Below, one piece after another: positions 2,547-60,977 of a DNA stretch of 64,000 nucleotides. Location of the stretch: assembly GCF_030013595.1 (NCBI RefSeq), contig NZ_CP122768.1; one strand, 5' to 3'. The notes under the pieces were generated by a model, which searched no databases, was not told where the DNA came from, and saw only the letters and a program-made list of their open reading frames with translations. A program made the translations under genes and the position numbers. How positions within the stretch are numbered: the first letter of the stretch is position 1; each line of letters starts with the position of its first letter. The DNA is from Escherichia coli (GTDB lineage Bacteria > Pseudomonadota > Gammaproteobacteria > Enterobacterales > Enterobacteriaceae).

Positions 2547-3050
2547 TTACTGATAGTGTTTTATGTTCAGATAATGCCCGATGACCTTGTCATGCAGCTC
2601 CACCGATTTTGAGAACGACAGTGACTTCCGTCCCAGCCTTGCCAGATGTTGTCTCAGATTCAGGTTATGCCGCTCAATGCGCTGAGTATAACGCTTGCTG
2701 ATAACGTGCAGCTTTCCCTTCAGGCGTGATTCATACAGCGGCCAGCCATCCGTCATCCATACCACGACCTCAAAGGCCGACAGCAGGCTCAGAAGACGCT
2801 CCAGTGTGGCCAGAGTGCGTTCACCGAAGACGTGCGCCACAACCGTCCTCCGCATCCTGTCATACGCGTAAAACAGCCAGCGCTGACGTGATTTAGCACC
2901 GACGTAGCCCCACTGTTCGTCCATTTCAGCGCAGACAATCACATCACTGCCCGGTTGTATGCGCGAGGTTACCGACTGCGGCCTGAGTTTTTTAAGTGGC
3001 GGAAAATCGTGTTGAGGCCAACGCCAATAATGCGTGCACTGGCGCGACAT
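2547..3050 (-). CDS. insB: IS1 transposase InsB
   Basis: 167-aa ORF matching IS1 InsB, -1 frame relative to insA (InsAB' frameshift arrangement). Confidence 0.9.
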
Positions 3051-3244
3051 CCGACGCCATTCATGGCCATATCAATGATTTTCTGGTGCGTACCGGGCTG
3101 AGAGGCGGCGTAAGTGAACTGTAGTTGCCATGTTTTACGGCAGTGAGAGCAGAGATAGCGCTGATGTCCGGCGGTGCTTTTGCCGTTACGCACCACCCCG
3201 TCAGTAGCTGAACAGGAGGGACAGCTGATAGAAACAGAAGCCAC
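2969..3244 (-). CDS. insA: IS1 InsA (zinc-finger transposition inhibitor)
   Basis: 91-aa [43 protein letters not shown]... Confidence 0.9.
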
Positions 3245-3299
3245 TGGAGCACCTCAAAAACACCATCATACACTAAATCAGTAAGTTGGCAGCATCACC

Positions 3300-3308
3300 A
3301 ATCATGTT
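3300..3308. repeat. IS1 target-site duplication, right copy (aatcatgtt)
   Basis: Identical 9-mer to 2523..2531. Confidence 0.85.
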
Positions 3309-3370
3309 ATTGATTTTACATAAATGCCGAAGTGTCTTTTCACCTTCGGCTTTTTTCAAGGCATAAGCAA

Positions 3371-8169: not shown

Positions 8170-8784
8170 TTAGCCGATTTTGTTACGTTGTGCGAATGTG
8201 TAAAGATCCATCAGTGATTTACATTCTAATTTTTCCATCAGGCGACTTTTATAAGTGCTGACAGTTTTGTTGCTGATGAACATTTTTTCCGCAATGTCAT
8301 TATTATCCTTGCCATCAAGAATATATCGCATGACACTAATTTCTTGTTTCGATAAGGAGTCGAGTTTTTGCTGGTCGGACGTTAAACTTCCAACAAACCG
8401 GTTGAGAGAGAAGGGGAAATAGCAGTAGCCATTTTTTGCAGCTTCAATAGCCGCAATGATATTGTTCATGCCTTCTTTTTTACTCACGAATCCATTAGCG
8501 CCAGCATCAGCACAATGTTTCCCGTAAAAATGGTCATTTTTAGCGGAGACGATAATAATAATTCCGCTATATTGGCGCTTCCTCAGCGTTTCTAACACCT
8601 GGATACCGTTAACTCCGGGGATATCGACATCAATGATGACGATATCAGGTTTAAGTGTTTCCACCCGCTGAACGGCACTTCCCCCTTCAGTCAACTCCGC
8701 TAAGATTTCAATATCGTTTTTGATCAATAAATTACGAATTGCTGCGATAGCAAGAGGATGGTCATCAATAATTATTGCGTTCAT
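8170..8784 (-). CDS. evgA: Response regulator EvgA (receiver + LuxR-type HTH)
   Basis: 204-aa ORF MNAIIIDDHPLAIAAIRNLL...; operon with evgS. Confidence 0.9.
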   Translation of the reverse strand: MNAIIIDDHPLAIAAIRNLLIKNDIEILAELTEGGSAVQRVETLKPDIVIIDVDIPGVNGIQVLETLRKRQYSGIIIIVSAKNDHFYGKHCADAGANGFVSKKEGMNNIIAAIEAAKNGYCYFPFSLNRFVGSLTSDQQKLDSLSKQEISVMRYILDGKDNNDIAEKMFISNKTVSTYKSRLMEKLECKSLMDLYTFAQRNKIG

Positions 8785-9008
8785 AGATTATTCCCTTGGC
8801 AATGAAGCATCTCCCTTCTCCCTGTAGTAATACAGACATAAGGCATCATCTCATTTTCTCAATAAAAATAAGAAAATTTGAGCTTCCTTTAAGATAATTC
8901 GACAAGTATACCATATAAATAGTCGGCATAAATGAAATGTCAACAATAAAATCAGGGATTGTACCGATGATTTATAGTTTCACATTAGCACTATAAGTCT
9001 TCTCACTA

Positions 9009-9026
9009 ATCCTACATGCGTAAGAA
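9009..9026. promoter_or_regulatory. Candidate EvgA box (ATCCTACA-TG-CGTAAGAA imperfect inverted repeat) in evgA-emrK divergent region
   Basis: Near-match to the recalled EvgA consensus TTCPyTACA...TGTAPuGAA; sits in the divergent promoter region. Confidence 0.35.
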
Positions 9027-9199
9027 TTGTATTGCAAAAGCTACGGTTTAGTCCTCTGTTGTTTTTTTTGCACCTCATTTAAATTAGGCCTCCAACGTTC
9101 CTGGGACAATGTGCAACACATGCACTGTGTTTGATATGAAGAATGAATACTCTTTTCATTCAATTCATAAATTTCATCTATGCGAAATGAGAGATAATA

Positions 9200-10363
9200 G
9201 TGGAACAGATTAATTCAAATAAAAAACATTCTAACAGAAGAAAATACTTTTCTTTATTGGCGGTAGTTTTATTTATTGCGTTTTCAGGTGCCTATGCCTA
9301 TTGGTCAATGGAATTAGAAGACATGATTAGTACAGATGATGCCTATGTCACGGGGAATGCAGATCCAATTTCTGCACAAGTTTCAGGCAGCGTCACTGTC
9401 GTTAATCATAAAGATACGAACTACGTTCGACAGGGTGACATTTTAGTCTCACTGGATAAGACTGATGCCACTATCGCACTCAATAAAGCTAAAAATAATC
9501 TGGCAAATATTGTTCGGCAAACGAATAAACTGTACTTACAGGATAAACAATACAGTGCCGAAGTCGCTTCAGCACGTATTCAGTATCAACAATCTTTAGA
9601 AGATTATAACCGTCGTGTGCCTTTAGCGAAGCAGGGGGTTATTTCAAAAGAAACGCTGGAGCATACCAAAGATACGTTAATAAGTAGCAAAGCGGCATTG
9701 AATGCCGCTATCCAGGCTTATAAAGCGAATAAAGCTTTAGTAATGAACACACCATTAAACCGTCAGCCACAAGTCGTTGAAGCTGCGGATGCAACCAAAG
9801 AAGCCTGGTTGGCGCTTAAACGTACGGATATTAAGAGTCCGGTTACCGGCTATATTGCCCAGCGAAGTGTTCAGGTCGGCGAAACAGTGAGTCCCGGACA
9901 ATCGTTAATGGCTGTCGTACCGGCACGTCAAATGTGGGTTAATGCTAACTTTAAAGAAACACAACTCACGGATGTACGGATTGGTCAATCGGTCAATATT
10001 ATCAGCGATCTTTATGGTGAAAATGTTGTGTTTCATGGTCGGGTGACAGGGATCAATATGGGAACCGGCAATGCGTTCTCCTTATTACCTGCACAAAATG
10101 CGACAGGGAACTGGATCAAAATCGTTCAGCGTGTACCGGTTGAAGTTTCTCTTGATCCAAAAGAACTCATGGAACATCCCTTACGTATTGGTTTATCGAT
10201 GACAGCAACTATTGATACGAAGAACGAAGACATTGCCGAGATGCCTGAGCTGGCTTCAACCGTGACGTCCATGCCTGCTTATACCAGTAAGGCTTTAGTT
10301 ATCGATACCAGTCCGATAGAAAAAGAAATTAGCAACATTATTTCGCATAATGGACAACTTTAA
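9200..10363 (+). CDS. emrK: Multidrug efflux membrane-fusion protein EmrK (EmrA family)
   Basis: 387-aa ORF with N-terminal membrane anchor and HlyD-like coiled coil; overlaps emrY start. Confidence 0.85.
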   Translation: MEQINSNKKHSNRRKYFSLLAVVLFIAFSGAYAYWSMELEDMISTDDAYVTGNADPISAQVSGSVTVVNHKDTNYVRQGDILVSLDKTDATIALNKAKNNLANIVRQTNKLYLQDKQYSAEVASARIQYQQSLEDYNRRVPLAKQGVISKETLEHTKDTLISSKAALNAAIQAYKANKALVMNTPLNRQPQVVEAADATKEAWLALKRTDIKSPVTGYIAQRSVQVGETVSPGQSLMAVVPARQMWVNANFKETQLTDVRIGQSVNIISDLYGENVVFHGRVTGINMGTGNAFSLLPAQNATGNWIKIVQRVPVEVSLDPKELMEHPLRIGLSMTATIDTKNEDIAEMPELASTVTSMPAYTSKALVIDTSPIEKEISNIISHNGQL

Positions 10364-23533: not shown

Positions 23534-23845
23534 TTAGGCGGCTGATGTTTCTTCTTTCAGGCTTTCGAGATATTTACGTGGGTCGTCGTAACATTGGCAT
23601 TCGCTGTACCAATCCACCCAGCGATCAGTAAGCCCCACCTCTGATAAATCTTCATCGGTAAGGCTCTCATCCCACATCTCAAGGCCGTTAGCATTGCAGT
23701 AATCAGGCTTGATGTTGTTGTCATACTGAAAGGCGTCATAATCAGCCAGTGCGTCCATCAGGCGAACACCCTCTTCAACACTTGCCACTTCTACAATGAA
23801 CGGCTTCATAGGTACTTGCGGGATATGCCAGACACGTAATTTCAT
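23534..23845 (-). CDS. Hypothetical early protein (position of lambda ea10)
   Basis: 103-aa acidic Cys-containing ORF co-oriented in the pL operon. Confidence 0.45.
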   Translation of the reverse strand: MKLRVWHIPQVPMKPFIVEVASVEEGVRLMDALADYDAFQYDNNIKPDYCNANGLEMWDESLTDEDLSEVGLTDRWVDWYSECQCYDDPRKYLESLKEETSAA

Positions 23846-23989
23846 ATTTCCTCCGTCAAAAAAATGCCCTCACACTGGAGGGCAAAGAAGATTTCCAATA
23901 ATCAGAACAAGTCGGCTCCTGTTTAGTTACGAGCGACATTGCTCCGTGTATTCACTCGTTGGAATGAATACACAGTGCTTATTCGCAGC

Positions 23990-24397
23990 CTACATAATCA
24001 TTCCGGTTATTATTACCATTTCAATATCGCTATCTTTCATAATGATTGGAGTTGAGTTATCAACTTTACTTTTACTCCATTTTCCTGCATCAGTTTTTAC
24101 CGCTCCACAATAAGAAAGCCAATCATCATCACAATGTTCTGGATCACTAATTCTGACAAGAACACGTGATAGTGCTTTTTCGATACTTTCATCACAATTA
24201 GCATTTGTGTAATTGCCGTGAGACAATTTCAAATCGTTAACTTCATCTTCATTGGCATCAAAAATATAGATTTCAGTCGACTCTGGAACATTTTCATAAA
24301 CCATTAAAACTTTCATTTTTACCCCATATTGTTTATGCCAAAAATAAAGGCCACCATTAGGCAGCCTTGTTGTTCTGTTTACCAAGTTCTCTGGCAA
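23990..24397 (-). CDS. AT-rich accessory ORF (moron) of unknown function between ral and the ea10-position gene
   Basis: 135-aa ORF (possibly starting at internal Met MKVLMVYENVPE...); local GC clearly lower than its neighbours. Confidence 0.4.
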   Translation of the reverse strand: MPENLVNRTTRLPNGGLYFWHKQYGVKMKVLMVYENVPESTEIYIFDANEDEVNDLKLSHGNYTNANCDESIEKALSRVLVRISDPEHCDDDWLSYCGAVKTDAGKWSKSKVDNSTPIIMKDSDIEMVIITGMIM

Positions 24398-24557
24398 TCA
24401 TTGCCGTCGTTCGTATTGCCCATTTATCGACATATTTCCCATCTTCCATTACAGGAAACATTTCTTCAGGCTTAACCATGCATTCCGATTGCAGCTTGCA
24501 TCCATTGCATCGTTTGAATTGTCCACACCATTGATTTGTATCAATAGTCGTAGTCAT
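24357..24557 (-). CDS. ral: Ral, restriction alleviation protein
   Basis: 66-aa ORF MTTTIDTNQWCGQFKRCNGCKLQSECMVKPEEMFPVMEDGKYVDKWAIRTTAMIARELGKQNNKAA, matching lambda Ral as recalled. Confidence 0.75.
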   Translation of the reverse strand: MTTTIDTNQWCGQFKRCNGCKLQSECMVKPEEMFPVMEDGKYVDKWAIRTTAMIARELGKQNNKAA

Positions 24558-24685
24558 ACGGATAGTCCTGGTATTGTTCCATCACATCCTGAGGATGCTC
24601 TTCGAACTCTTCAAATTCTTCTTCCATATCTCACCTCAAATAAGTGGTTTGCTGCCTAATTTCATTTTCTGGCGACCAACACAAG

Positions 24686-24958
24686 TCATCTTGCTGTCAG
24701 CTGTTTGGATTTCCTGTAGCCTGCCGCGTAAATGGCTACATTTGGAAGACAAGTTGAGCCTTCATATTTTCTGGTCAACGTTGTCAGTGTTATTACTTCT
24801 GCTCTCATTACTGGTTTGCGTTTGCATTGTAAGACCACTCGTGAAGGGGTTGGCCTGTGTAGCTTGTCAGAGCTGATCGCCTCCTGACTTTGCAGGTTTG
24901 CACGACGAGCTCTACGGCGAGAAGCTGCGGTGCCTTTAAATTCTGTTTTTCTGGACAT
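24686..24958 (-). CDS. N-like transcription antiterminator (arginine-rich motif; P22 gp24-like C-terminus)
   Basis: Arg-rich motif ASRRRARRA near the N-terminus; C-terminus ...VAIYAAGYRKSKQLTAR resembles P22 gp24; start set at internal Met. Confidence 0.65.
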   Translation of the reverse strand: MSRKTEFKGTAASRRRARRANLQSQEAISSDKLHRPTPSRVVLQCKRKPVMRAEVITLTTLTRKYEGSTCLPNVAIYAAGYRKSKQLTAR

Positions 24959-25397
24959 AGATTCCTCCCGAATAAACTTTGGCGATGCAATCTCGAAGCT
25001 CCTCCTGAGACGGTTGCTTCGGCATTGCATCCCACAGCTTATATGGTTGGGTGATCTGGCTTTTCAGCCACGTAGTCGAGTGTTCGACGTTGTTTAAAGA
25101 GCCTGCCAGTCTGCTCCGTTTGGCTTACAGCGTCCTGCTGACGGTTAAATAGTACGATATGTACTTTATTGGGTCAATACAATTTGTTCTAAAATGGGGT
25201 GATTTTTTATAACGCTTTGTATTTAATAGTGTTGTTTTTTAGCGTGGGTGTATCGCCTCGGCGATGTAAGGAGAGATCAGAATTGCGTGGTTTAGTGAGT
25301 TGTATCTATTTATTTTTCAATAAATACATTTGGTTATGTGTCTTTAGGTGGGGGCGTGAGGCAAAGAAAACCCGGCTCGGTGGCCGGGTTGATGGGA

Positions 25398-26255
25398 TTA
25401 TCGTTTATTTCTTTGATGTTTCTTTGCTGACTCAGCTTGAGTGTTTCCATACCTGCGTTTACCGCTATTGTTTTTTCCTCTAGGCTTGCCTTTTTTTCGA
25501 TCTTCCCACCAGTCAGGTGCCGGGTCTGGCTCAACATGTAAAGCATCGGCAAGTCCTGATATCAAGCTGTATGACTGAACTCCATCAATGTGCTCTGACA
25601 GTGATGGGGTAACATTCTGTCTTAGTGGATCAAGAATAAAATCAATACCTTTAATTCTGGCGTGTTTGGCGGCAGGCACAAAGTCTGAGTCCCCAGCAAC
25701 AAGGACAATTACATCAACAAGTTTTTCATAAGCTAAAGTCGTGATATCCATCCCTAGCTTGATATCAACTTGTTTTTGTTTGATGTCATAGTAAAAATCA
25801 TCATTTGTCAGTTCATCCCATTTTTTCGTTCCTTTCATCAGAGCATCAAGGGAGAATGTAGTTAGTTGCCATCGCTTATTATCAACAAGATTCCCTAATC
25901 TTAAGGCTGTTTTTCGAGTTTTTCTTAACTCTTCATGCAGCTCCGTTCTCAGAATATATGATTTTTCGAGTTTGAAATTCTTGCGACCAGGCGTCTTATT
26001 GCCAGGCTCAGGAAGTGGAAGGCGTGTTTGAATGTCGAGTGGTGGACAGTCATAGAAGTAAATTCTATAAAGCTCAAGCGGTTCCCTACGTTCTTGTGAT
26101 TGACGTTTTCCATTAAGATGGGAAAGAACCATTGACCATATTACTTTCATTATGCATTGCGCAGTCAGTTCATGCTCGGCGAAGTGTTTACGATGCGTAG
26201 CATGAACACGCTGCATGAAAAAACCCGCATCAATTAAAATTGCTGCTTTCTTCAT
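25398..26255 (-). CDS. NYN-domain (LabA/PIN-like) putative nuclease, in the position lambda uses for rexAB
   Basis: 285 aa; N-terminal MKKAAILIDAGFF and VIVLVAGDSDFVPAAKHARIKGIDFIL motifs typical of NYN domains; lies between cI and the pL/N region. Confidence 0.65.
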   Translation of the reverse strand: MKKAAILIDAGFFMQRVHATHRKHFAEHELTAQCIMKVIWSMVLSHLNGKRQSQERREPLELYRIYFYDCPPLDIQTRLPLPEPGNKTPGRKNFKLEKSYILRTELHEELRKTRKTALRLGNLVDNKRWQLTTFSLDALMKGTKKWDELTNDDFYYDIKQKQVDIKLGMDITTLAYEKLVDVIVLVAGDSDFVPAAKHARIKGIDFILDPLRQNVTPSLSEHIDGVQSYSLISGLADALHVEPDPAPDWWEDRKKGKPRGKNNSGKRRYGNTQAESAKKHQRNKR

Positions 26256-33950: not shown

Positions 33951-34025
33951 GGGTCAGTCGTATAAAGGTCATTACGGAAGGCTGTTAACCTTCTTATCGT
34001 GGTTCGAGTCCACGCTGTCCCGCCA
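33951..34025 (+). tRNA. Candidate phage-encoded tRNA (anticodon GTT, Asn-like); atypical D-arm and one acceptor-stem mismatch
   Basis: Manual fold: acceptor GGGTCAG/CTGTCCC, anticodon stem GAAGG/CCTTC with loop CTGTTAA, T-arm CGTGG-TTCGAGT-CCACG, 3' GCCA. Confidence 0.45.
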
Positions 34026-34030
34026 AATAT

Positions 34031-34106
34031 GCTGGTTTAGCTCCAATGGTAGAGCGGTCGCCTTGTAAGCGAATGGGTAGCGGTTCAAGTCCGTTAACCA
34101 GCACCA
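34031..34106 (+). tRNA. Candidate phage-encoded tRNA (anticodon TGT, Thr-like)
   Basis: Manual fold: acceptor GCTGGTT/AACCAGC, D-arm GCTC-CAATGGTA-GAGC, anticodon loop CTTGTAA, T-arm AGCGG-TTCAAGT-CCGTT, 3' ACCA. Confidence 0.5.
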
Positions 34107-36484: not shown

Positions 36485-36691
36485 CGGCAGTACCGCGAAA
36501 CAACCCAAGCCAGTAAGTGGGGAAATAACTGAAAGATGAACCTCCAGCCTTATGGCAAAAAAGATTCTTTGTGGTGGCGGACTGATGGAAAGACATCGGA
36601 TAGAATAAAACAGTGGCTAGGGTAGCTCCCGAAAAGCGGAATCGTCACCGCCAGCCACTGAATCTATGACGAACAACTAGACGAGGTTGAT

Positions 36692-58664: not shown

Positions 58665-58679
58665 TGGTGTCCCCTGCAG
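58665..58679. repeat. Prophage attR core: 15-bp direct repeat (tggtgtcccctgcag) within the argW 3' end
   Basis: Exact copy of 19143..19157. Confidence 0.7.
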
Positions 58680-58739
58680 GAATCGAACCTGCAATTAGCC
58701 CTTAGGAGGGGCTCGTTATATCCATTTAACTAAGAGGAC
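58665..58739 (-). tRNA. argW: tRNA-Arg (anticodon CCU), argW; prophage attR at its 3' end
   Basis: Reverse complement reads GTCCTCTTAGTTAAATGGATATAACGAGCCCCTCCTAAGGGCTAATTGCAGGTTCGATTCCTGCAGGGGACACCA. Confidence 0.9.
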
Positions 58740-58814
58740 AATGCGGCATGAGTATACCCGCTAATGGACTGCGGGGTAAGTACGCTGCCGCTCGATTGCT
58801 TAAACCCTCGCCAT

Positions 58815-59747
58815 TTATGCCGGGTTTTTATCATTTTTCTTAATGTTTTCCGCACGTTCTGCTTTTTGGCGTGCTTCTGCTTTGCGCTTGTTGCTCATGT
58901 CGTTGCGGATCTGTGCATGACTCATTAACGCGAAGATAAAGGTGCCGCCGCAGATGTTCCCCGCTAAAGTAGGTAGTGCGAAGGGCCAGATGAAATCGCT
59001 CCAGTGCAGCGTACCGTTAAACACCAGATAGAGGATTTCAACAGAACCGACAACGATGTGAGTGGTGTCACCCAGGGCAATAAGCCAGGTCATCAATATA
59101 ATCACCACAATCTTTGCCGCACCCGCTGCAGGAAACATCCATACCATAGTGGCGATCAGCCAGCCGGAAATGATCGCGTTGGCAAACATCTCGCTGGGGG
59201 TGTTCTTCATCACATCCATGCCGATTTTGACAAATGCATCGCGAGTTTCTTCATTGAAGATTGGCATATATTCAAATGCCCACGCCGCAATACCTGTCCC
59301 GAGAATATTACCCAGCAGCACGACGCCCCATAACCGCATAAGTAAGCCAACGTTGCTCATTGTCGGTTTTTGCATGACGGGTAGTACCGCAGTCACGGTG
59401 TTTTCGGTAAATAATTGCTGGCGGGCCATAATGACGATAATAAAACCAAAGGTATAACCGAGATTCTCCAGCAAGAAGCTGCCCGGCACGCCTTCCAGTT
59501 CGACATGAAATATCCCTTTTGCCAGTAATGAAGCGCCCATCGACAGACCCGCCGCAATGGCTGACCACAGTAGTGCCATTGCGTCGCGTTCCAGCTCTTT
59601 TTCACCATCCTGGCGGATATGCTCATGAATTGCCATCGCCCGGGAGGGGAGTCGGTCTTCATCTATTTCTATTTTTTTGCCGCGCTCTTTTTCTTCGCTC
59701 TCAACTTCAATTTCGTCGCTGTGTTGATCAATTTTGTCGTTGTCCAT
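58815..59747 (-). CDS. yfdC: Formate/nitrite transporter-family inner membrane protein YfdC
   Basis: Polytopic membrane ORF; start set at internal Met MDNDKIDQHSDEIE... of the 349-aa ORF. Confidence 0.8.
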   Translation of the reverse strand: MDNDKIDQHSDEIEVESEEKERGKKIEIDEDRLPSRAMAIHEHIRQDGEKELERDAMALLWSAIAAGLSMGASLLAKGIFHVELEGVPGSFLLENLGYTFGFIIVIMARQQLFTENTVTAVLPVMQKPTMSNVGLLMRLWGVVLLGNILGTGIAAWAFEYMPIFNEETRDAFVKIGMDVMKNTPSEMFANAIISGWLIATMVWMFPAAGAAKIVVIILMTWLIALGDTTHIVVGSVEILYLVFNGTLHWSDFIWPFALPTLAGNICGGTFIFALMSHAQIRNDMSNKRKAEARQKAERAENIKKNDKNPA

Positions 59748-60040
59748 GGTCTCTTCTCTTGAATTAGCACGTATAGCTAAAGCGTAGCGGCTTTTTTGCT
59801 CGCAACTGGCGGGAGTTACTCTGAAAATGTAGAAAAGGCCGCGTTTGCCTTTTTCTGTTTCCATAGAATCAAGTAGCCTACAGGGCGGCGATTACCAGGC
59901 TATGATCAAATCAGCAAATCAGGGCGTCTGGACATCAGTTGACGTGCTGTTACAATCGCCCACACCTAAACAGGCGGATACGGTATCGTTCCGTCATGGA
60001 TGGCAAACTGCATAAGCCATAAAAAAACAGGGAGACATTT

Positions 60041-60796
60041 ATGAAGCTTCGCCTGTCGGCGCTTGCTCTGGGAACTACGCTTCTGGTGGGGTGTGCGAGT
60101 TCCGGTACAGATCAGCAAGGGCGTTCTGACCCGTTAGAAGGGTTCAACCGCACCATGTACAACTTTAACTTCAATGTATTAGACCCGTATATTGTTCGAC
60201 CGGTCGCTGTCGCCTGGCGTGATTATGTTCCGCAACCGGCGCGTAACGGTTTGAGCAATTTTACCGGCAACCTTGAAGAACCTGCGGTGATGGTTAACTA
60301 CTTCTTGCAGGGCGACCCTTATCAGGGGATGGTCCACTTTACCCGCTTTTTCCTGAACACCATTTTGGGGATGGGCGGCTTTATTGATGTTGCAGGGATG
60401 GCGAACCCGAAACTGCAACGGACTGAACCTCACCGCTTCGGTAGTACGCTTGGTCATTATGGCGTGGGTTATGGCCCGTACGTTCAATTACCGTTCTACG
60501 GTAGCTTCACGCTGCGTGATGACGGTGGTGATATGGTGGATGGTCTTTACCCGGTTCTTTCCTGGTTGACCTGGCCGATGTCTGTGGGTAAATGGACGCT
60601 TGAAGGTATCGAAACCCGCGCACAGCTGCTGGATTCCGACGGTCTGCTGCGTCAGTCGTCCGATCCTTACATTATGGTGCGCGAAGCGTACTTCCAGCGT
60701 CATGATTTCATCGCTAATGGCGGCGAACTCAAACCGCAGGAAAATCCGAACGCGCAAGCGATTCAGGATGATTTAAAAGATATCGATTCTGAATAA
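60041..60796 (+). CDS. mlaA: Outer-membrane lipoprotein MlaA (VacJ)
   Basis: 251 aa with lipoprotein signal MKLRLSALALGTTLLVGCASS. Confidence 0.9.
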   Translation: MKLRLSALALGTTLLVGCASSGTDQQGRSDPLEGFNRTMYNFNFNVLDPYIVRPVAVAWRDYVPQPARNGLSNFTGNLEEPAVMVNYFLQGDPYQGMVHFTRFFLNTILGMGGFIDVAGMANPKLQRTEPHRFGSTLGHYGVGYGPYVQLPFYGSFTLRDDGGDMVDGLYPVLSWLTWPMSVGKWTLEGIETRAQLLDSDGLLRQSSDPYIMVREAYFQRHDFIANGGELKPQENPNAQAIQDDLKDIDSE

Positions 60797-60804
60797 GAAA
60801 CAAA

Positions 60805-60840
60805 TAAAAAAGGTGAGTCGCAAAACTCACCTTTTTTGTT
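60805..60840 (+). terminator. Rho-independent terminator after mlaA (A-run/T-run flanked)
   Basis: aggtgagt-cgcaaa-actcacct hairpin followed by TTTTTT. Confidence 0.75.
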
Positions 60841-60977
60841 GTTATCCCTCAATTACCACAAGTAAAAGGAGATAAACCGACAATGACCCGGACGTAATGA
60901 TGTAAAAATACTGATGTTCGTCATTGACTATTTCCGATATTCAGTCGTTGAAAAATCAAAAAACTGGAAAAATAATT

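Follow-up and report, generated by a model that had tools for sequence, protein, structure and literature searches.

An acidic accessory gene of the phrog_4658 family beside ral in the early-left operon of a lambdoid prophage of Escherichia coli

The locus and the reading frame of gene X

The gene described here, hereafter X, lies on the minus strand of a lambdoid prophage within a 64,000-nucleotide stretch of Escherichia coli DNA (the window). The gene order along the operon is pL-like promoter, nutL-like site, the antiterminator gene N, a 28-codon acidic ORF, ral, a hairpin, X, a terminator, a gp17-like gene, the cIII thermoregulator RNA, cIII, kil, gam, bet and exo (Table 1). The initial annotation had placed X between ral and the gene at the ea10 position in the pL operon, and matches of the two neighbours to PF11058 and PF17420, respectively, bore this out. 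PHROGs assigns the family of the gp17-like neighbour to the category moron/host takeover. The site at 25058..25103 is presumably nutL-like, as judged by its resemblance to the consensus.

Table 1. Features at the X locus (positions in the window)
Feature	Position	Strand	Basis and remarks
X, accessory gene	23990..24316	-	ORF list, RefSeq relatives, phrog_4658 match, dN/dS, AlphaFold2 model
Shine-Dalgarno-like GGGG	24322..24325	-	5-nt spacer to ATG 24316; read from the sequence
ral (anti-restriction), upstream neighbour of X	24357..24557	-	PF11058 1.7e-48; phrog_1055
P22 gp17-like 'superinfection exclusion' family gene, downstream neighbour, at the lambda ea10 place	23534..23845	-	PF17420 5.6e-55; phrog_1510
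Antiterminator N	24686..24957	-	PF25694 1.5e-32; likely ATG 24957 with SD GGAGG before it; the mechanical ORF reaches 25030
nutL-like site: boxA-like GCTCTTTAAACA and boxB-like hairpin GGCTGAAAAGCC	25058..25103	-	Read from the sequence
pL-like promoter TTGACC, 17 nt, TACTAT	25149..25177	-	Consensus match only; lies between the cI-side gene and N, which fits pL
Insert relative to phage lambda, ~350 bp	23979..24329	.	Alignment to lambda J02459; right edge placed to within a few nt
Terminator-like hairpin across the ral stop codon, directly upstream of X	24347..24368	-	Lambda backbone, also in lambda
Terminator-like hairpin with a T run after it, 105 nt downstream of X	23865..23884	-	Lambda backbone, identical in lambda

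The six-frame ORF list of the window contains a mechanical ORF at 23990..24397(-), which begins with TTG and would encode 135 aa. The initial annotation took this entire ORF to be the gene. The ORF does contain a real coding gene, but that start lies 81 nt too far upstream; the CDS of X comprises 327 nt (108 aa) and begins with ATG at 24316. We took this ATG as the start because a GGGG sequence precedes it and because the RefSeq CDS and the homologues all begin there. The RefSeq protein WP_001554880.1 ('hypothetical protein'), annotated in E. coli LR-24 and SY038, corresponds to the same 327-nt CDS, and the equivalent Met-Lys was the start in every X homologue compared. The 27 extra codons from the TTG are lambda backbone that overlaps ral. 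They consist of the ral 3' end and the hairpin at the ral stop, both of which are also present in lambda, which has no X.

The CDS of X has a GC content of 33.0% (GC3, 23.9%), compared with 46.4% for the window and 41-53% for the neighbouring genes. With z = -2.5, it falls within the lowest 1.8% among all 327-nt segments of the 64-kb sequence, and just two other regions of the window are as AT-rich. The lower GC content relative to the flanking genes, as noted in the initial annotation, was thus confirmed. The protein is acidic (pI 4.36; net charge -11; 21 D+E versus 10 K+R) and contains three Cys residues. The earlier description of an acidic, Cys-containing protein therefore holds for X itself, but the Cys residues are not a feature of its family: only 2-5 of 140 relatives have Cys at these positions. 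A metal site formed by these residues was ruled out for the same reason. No TM segment was found in X (the highest 19-residue Kyte-Doolittle mean was 1.1), nor was a signal peptide or lipoprotein signal, and the hydrophobic C-terminus forms a beta strand in the AlphaFold2 model. These results support the view, already expressed on the basis of the missing TM segments, that X is a soluble, acidic protein and not a membrane exclusion protein.

The 40 nt from the ral stop (24357) to ATG 24316, which hold the hairpin, contained no sigma-70-like site. On the minus strand, promoter-like matches were limited to the pL-like promoter at 25177 and a weak site (9/12) that lies in X itself, at its 3' end. 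The pL-like promoter is the likely source of X transcription. X would be transcribed from pL through N antitermination, as a delayed-early gene, and if so it would be silent in a lysogen. Because X lacks a promoter of its own, it is better described as an in-operon accessory cassette than as a classical moron. The term moron, used for X in the initial annotation, does not apply in the strict sense: no promoter-like site lies upstream, and the terminator downstream is part of the lambda backbone and lies outside the insert. The initial annotation named sieB as an example of cargo in the ral-to-cIII interval; in lambda, sieB is located between ral and N.

Several other features of the window were recorded. 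The 28-codon, extremely acidic ORF at 24540-24626(-), MEEEFEEFEEHPQDVMEQYQDYPYDYDY, overlaps the start of ral; its counterpart in lambda is a small ORF that the J02459 annotation shows upstream of ral. A 285-aa NYN-domain gene at 25398-26255(-) occupies the place of lambda rexAB, between the pL-like promoter and cI, with a terminator-like hairpin after it (25369-25390). In view of its matches to PF01936 (6.8e-9) and phrog_5783 (1.5e-119), and its weak ones to the PADLOC models HEC-09 (2e-4) and NYN (1.4e-3), this gene is a candidate for a defence nuclease expressed from the prophage. Both ends of the window consist of E. coli chromosome, with evgA and emrK (8170-10363) on one side and mlaA and fadL (58665-63964) on the other, as read from ORF translations. 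Further, ARAGORN predicted an argW-like tRNA-Arg(CCT) at 58665-58739. Given the chromosomal ends and this tRNA, the prophage lies in the argW neighbourhood. Inside the prophage, at 33951-34106(+) and 36610-36672(+), there are genes for tRNA-Asn and tRNA-Thr as well as an Rfam match to the int-alpA sRNA (42 bits). A very AT-rich, N/D/I-rich ORF of 424 aa at 60978-62252(-), between mlaA/vacJ and fadL, had no Pfam match; it lies in one of just three regions whose AT-richness equals that of X. Strong AT-richness also marks the stretch between evgA and emrK (8691-9297).

A gene-only cassette in a variable slot of the lambda backbone

When the locus was aligned to phage lambda (J02459), X was found on an insert that stands in place of ~16-20 nt of the lambda ral-ea10 spacer. 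The flanks of the insert are ~97% identical to lambda and are contiguous there; the junction is empty in lambda. Apart from X and its ribosome-binding site, the insert contains no more than a few bases. The position of the downstream hairpin (23865-23884) is, we assume, that of the lambda tL2 cluster. We concluded that X is a horizontally acquired gene-only cassette between two backbone hairpins.

The same junction on the ral/ea10 side (23979/24329) accommodates at least five alternative small cassettes of one or two genes, which share the left boundary. These cassettes, found in Sf101, 2G7b and E. coli EC31 and 23CRST032, encode members of phrog_2201, 1273, 15499, 10407 and 24660, all of which are of unknown function. 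The X cassette itself occurs in identical form in two other mosaics. In LR-24, ral lies upstream and a TolA-like gene downstream; in SY038, a gene of the Nmad5 family replaces ral. Another lambdoid phage carries a homologue 82% identical to X in the order ral, a 67-aa ORF, X, cIII and kil. Further, in all 18 prophage loci of IMG/VR that were gathered with a narrow alignment of X relatives, X follows N and precedes cIII, and its neighbours vary.

The distribution of X within E. coli is patchy. It is carried by 15 of 5426 complete E. coli genomes, and the exact X protein was present on 616 contigs of a large collection. X and the 82%-identical homologue differ by 41 synonymous and 24 non-synonymous changes, which corresponds to a dN/dS of 0.07. 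The initial annotation had left it to comparison whether the ORF is conserved as coding, and this value shows that it is. X is a genuine gene under purifying selection. We concluded further that it is a selected, mobile accessory gene, of which the patchy distribution, the deviant GC content and the dN/dS of 0.07 are the signature.

The phrog_4658 family and the predicted structure of X

X matched the HMM of phrog_4658 with E = 2.4e-38, residues 1-108 aligning with profile positions 2-109 of 109, and all 140 X relatives (140/140) also matched this HMM. The family is catalogued in PHROGs with unknown function. No match to X was found in Pfam or NCBIfam, PADLOC returned 0 families at E up to 1, and Pfam gave no match for any of the 140 relatives. 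A match to DUF5675 (E = 0.085) was dismissed as noise, having arisen on the over-extended ORF. The earlier statement that X has no recognisable family is thus correct with respect to Pfam, NCBIfam, PADLOC and PDB sequences, but not with respect to PHROGs. A search of the literature for phrog_4658, its accessions or the topic yielded no paper.

Homologues that are 29-35% identical to X were detected by tblastn in 114 phage records. These include T4-like Straboviridae of Klebsiella, Enterobacter, Cronobacter, Citrobacter, Yersinia and Morganella, 48-kb Klebsiella myoviruses and a Stephanstirmvirinae phage of Klebsiella. The homologues of RB16 and RB43 were added by another tblastn run, in which a family member served as the query. 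In the Straboviridae, the gene is located in the early block that extends from rIIB/ndd to the holin gene. An HMM search of the six-frame translation revealed no homology to T4 Arn or to any T4 gene between rIIB and t. Among temperate phages, two other lambdoids carry homologues 42-44% identical to X as the first gene after N. A Burkholderia gladioli 'plasmid', which is really a lambdoid phage, has a homologue in the same arm, with ERF and exo downstream of it. This was the sole plasmid match; no family member was found in conjugative plasmids or their anti-defence leading regions. Further, there were no paralogues near the family members or within the window. In Klebsiella phage vB_KpM_FBKp34 (Stephanstirmvirinae), the homologue at 3001-3333 lies inside a tellurite-resistance-like cluster that comprises TerC, TerF-vWA, two TerD and TelA.

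A profile search of 1.84 billion cluster representatives returned 644 clusters (50% identity) at E up to 1e-3. Almost all of the best 150 of these 644 clusters are stand-alone domains, and the N-terminal extensions of the longer relatives P0148, P0104, P0098 and P0142 had no Pfam match. The family comprises two size classes of ~85 and ~105 aa, with a mean net charge of -8.8. Members of the shorter class occur in runs of small co-oriented ORFs, such as large virulent phages typically have in their early regions. The 90%-identity cluster to which the exact X protein was assigned is represented by an unrelated 210-aa Cys-rich protein (P0154), which looks like a clustering artefact. Because of this cluster, a word-indexed homologue search returned almost nothing, a problem that the exhaustive profile search solved. 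We concluded that the family is phage-specific and resides in the early regions of both temperate phages, where it occupies the N-proximal part of the pL operon, and virulent phages.

Mean column identity in the family is 18%. Conservation peaks at L4, Y/W7, E8, P11, E12, T14, Y17, H33, G34, Y36, N38, P90, D99, T104, the invariant G105, F106 and a C-terminal L/M. The conserved polar positions are E8, E12, T14, H33, N38, D99 and T104.

The structure of X was predicted using AlphaFold2 with the alignment of 140 sequences (mean pLDDT, 97.3; pTM, 0.88). The model consists of a beta hairpin (2-10, 13-20), helices at 23-32, 43-56 and 64-70, and a C-terminal strand (100-107). When it was compared by Foldseek with 350,542 PDB chains, the best E value was 0.84 and no solved relative was found. 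A search of BFVD returned only uncharacterised members of the phrog_4658 family, and PDB sequence searches using profiles of 7 and 140 sequences gave chance matches only. The fold of X, as modelled, is a confidently predicted alpha/beta fold unlike any solved structure. Further, remote homology in the PDB profile, Foldseek and BFVD searches pointed to no housekeeping phage function, an assignment that would have spoken against the initial annotation. A tandem fusion of two X copies joined by a 30-residue Gly-Ser linker was modelled with a fused alignment of 30 sequences (pTM, 0.82 over 246 residues; linker disordered), and judging from this model X is probably a homodimer.

Possible functions of X and comparison with known systems

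An anti-defence or host-takeover role for X is plausible from its context. Its position, from which early expression would follow, and its phage-restricted family fit a protein that acts upon the host as infection begins. The early accessory genes of phages also include host-takeover and regulatory functions. Further, because the alternative cargos of the hotspot are equally uncharacterised, the locus is a weak guide to the function of X.

With these points in mind, we tentatively favour the explanation that X is a stoichiometric inhibitor of a host factor, probably a component of defence, on the basis of its context. X would bind and neutralise a host protein early in infection or induction. 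Its target would most probably be an anti-phage defence component, such as a nuclease or another DNA-directed enzyme, and the logic would be analogous to that of the neighbours ral and gp17. We favoured a strain-variable target of this kind over universal host machinery because of the neighbours of X, the turnover at the hotspot, the patchy distribution in E. coli and the published link between ral and orf184 (see below). Comparison with known anti-defence proteins gave no match to X by sequence or fold.

A broader proposal extends this explanation to the entire family, which would then be a large, previously unrecognised counter-defence family common to lambdoid, T4-like, Jedunavirus-like and phi92-like phages. 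Its new fold would carry the conserved site E-PE-T...HGxYxN...D..TGF, which would inactivate a host immune component for which no phage inhibitor is known. We regard this proposal as possible but doubtful.

X may instead be a factor of host takeover or physiology outside immunity, for example an inhibitor of a protein of host transcription, replication, division or proteolysis. Kil, cIII and the T4 early proteins around ndd are models for such a factor. The gene shares its operon with kil, cIII and gam, its T4-like homologues adjoin ndd and rII, and X, presumably expressed early, is small and acidic as well as dispensable, since lambda itself lacks it. However, the patchiness within one host species and the turnover at the hotspot are better suited to strain-specific targets, and we consider a function outside immunity rather unlikely.

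The inhibitor of a defence component that we favour could, as a special case, be a DNA-mimic anti-restriction protein, in which an acidic surface imitates the phosphates of DNA and blocks a nuclease or restriction enzyme. Consistent with such mimicry are the net charge of -11 over 108 aa at a pI of 4.36, the family mean of -8.8, the conserved acidic residues E8, E12 and D99, the position directly after ral and the predicted dimer. Taken as a specific mechanism, it is unlikely.

The pattern of conservation bears on another alternative, namely that X binds or converts a small molecule, for example by sequestering, as a sponge, or degrading an immune signalling nucleotide or by binding some other metabolite, with the conserved polar residues as its pocket. 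The polar or small residues E8, P11, E12, T14, H33, G34, N38, D99, T104 and G105 are near-invariant despite the low mean column identity, and an oligomer is predicted, as for known sponges. X has, however, no fold match to solved sponges or to any nucleotide-binding fold in the PDB, and such a pocket, read from the alignment, seems improbable.

Least likely of all, and in our view very improbable, is that X is a moron for lysogenic conversion or superinfection exclusion, which the prophage would express to shield the lysogen: the insert is AT-rich and foreign and a neighbour is annotated 'superinfection exclusion', but X has no promoter of its own, lies behind terminator-like hairpins in the repressed pL operon, lacks a TM segment and a signal peptide, has homologues in the early regions of strictly virulent phages and has no PADLOC match.

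The favoured inhibitor of a host defence component has several counterparts among known systems. Ral, Ocr, ArdA, Arn and Ugi are small acidic phage inhibitors of host nucleases. X resembles them in early expression (presumed in the case of X), small size, acidity and the lack of an enzymatic domain, but is not similar to any of them in sequence or fold. The HMM of Ral (PF11058) did not match X, whereas it matched the neighbouring gene with 1.7e-48. With the DNA mimics among these proteins (Ocr, ArdA, Arn and Ugi), X shares the strong negative charge but neither sequence nor fold kinship. X is like the lambdoid morons in the sense of Hendrix and Juhala in its foreign base composition and its precise insertion between backbone genes. 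It differs from them in that it lacks its own pair of promoter and terminator and is part of an operon which the lysogen keeps repressed. Unlike membrane exclusion proteins of the SieB, Imm and Cor types, X has no TM segment or lipoprotein signal, and its fold is not similar to the solved structures of sponges of the Tad1, Tad2 and Acb2 types. As regards phrog_4658, X is a full-length member of a family that has no name, Pfam or NCBIfam model, structure or literature.

The closest published parallel concerns the accessory region that ral shares with orf184, which triggers the abortive-infection system gop-beta-cII (Silas et al., bioRxiv 10.1101/2023.04.06.535777). Like X, the ral-linked accessory genes of that study encode small acidic proteins of ~100 aa of unknown function in a variable slot beside ral. 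X is unrelated to orf184 in sequence. Further, in a fragment search of the supplement sequences, the X family was absent from the 200-gene accessory library of that study, whereas the Ral control was found.

Once found, the target of X would allow hundreds of phage gene clusters to be annotated together, and a new pair of inhibitor and defence might come to light. Should X prove to have no phenotype, it would be one more ordinary hypothetical accessory gene. Among the sites at which lambdoid phages carry counter-defence genes is the variable slot beside ral, and small families at this slot have repeatedly proved to be inhibitors or triggers of bacterial immunity. The X family is tractable: it is a short stand-alone domain predicted with a pLDDT of 97, its sharply conserved polar motif offers ready point mutants, and it occurs not only in E. 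coli prophages but also in model-like phages (RB43, RB16 and Klebsiella phages). X belongs among the accessory genes of the lambdoid early-left operon, which are of a known kind. A hypothetical gene at the ral slot would not surprise a specialist; X is still a good candidate for screening, given the breadth of its family, its confidently predicted orphan fold and the mutational handles that it offers.
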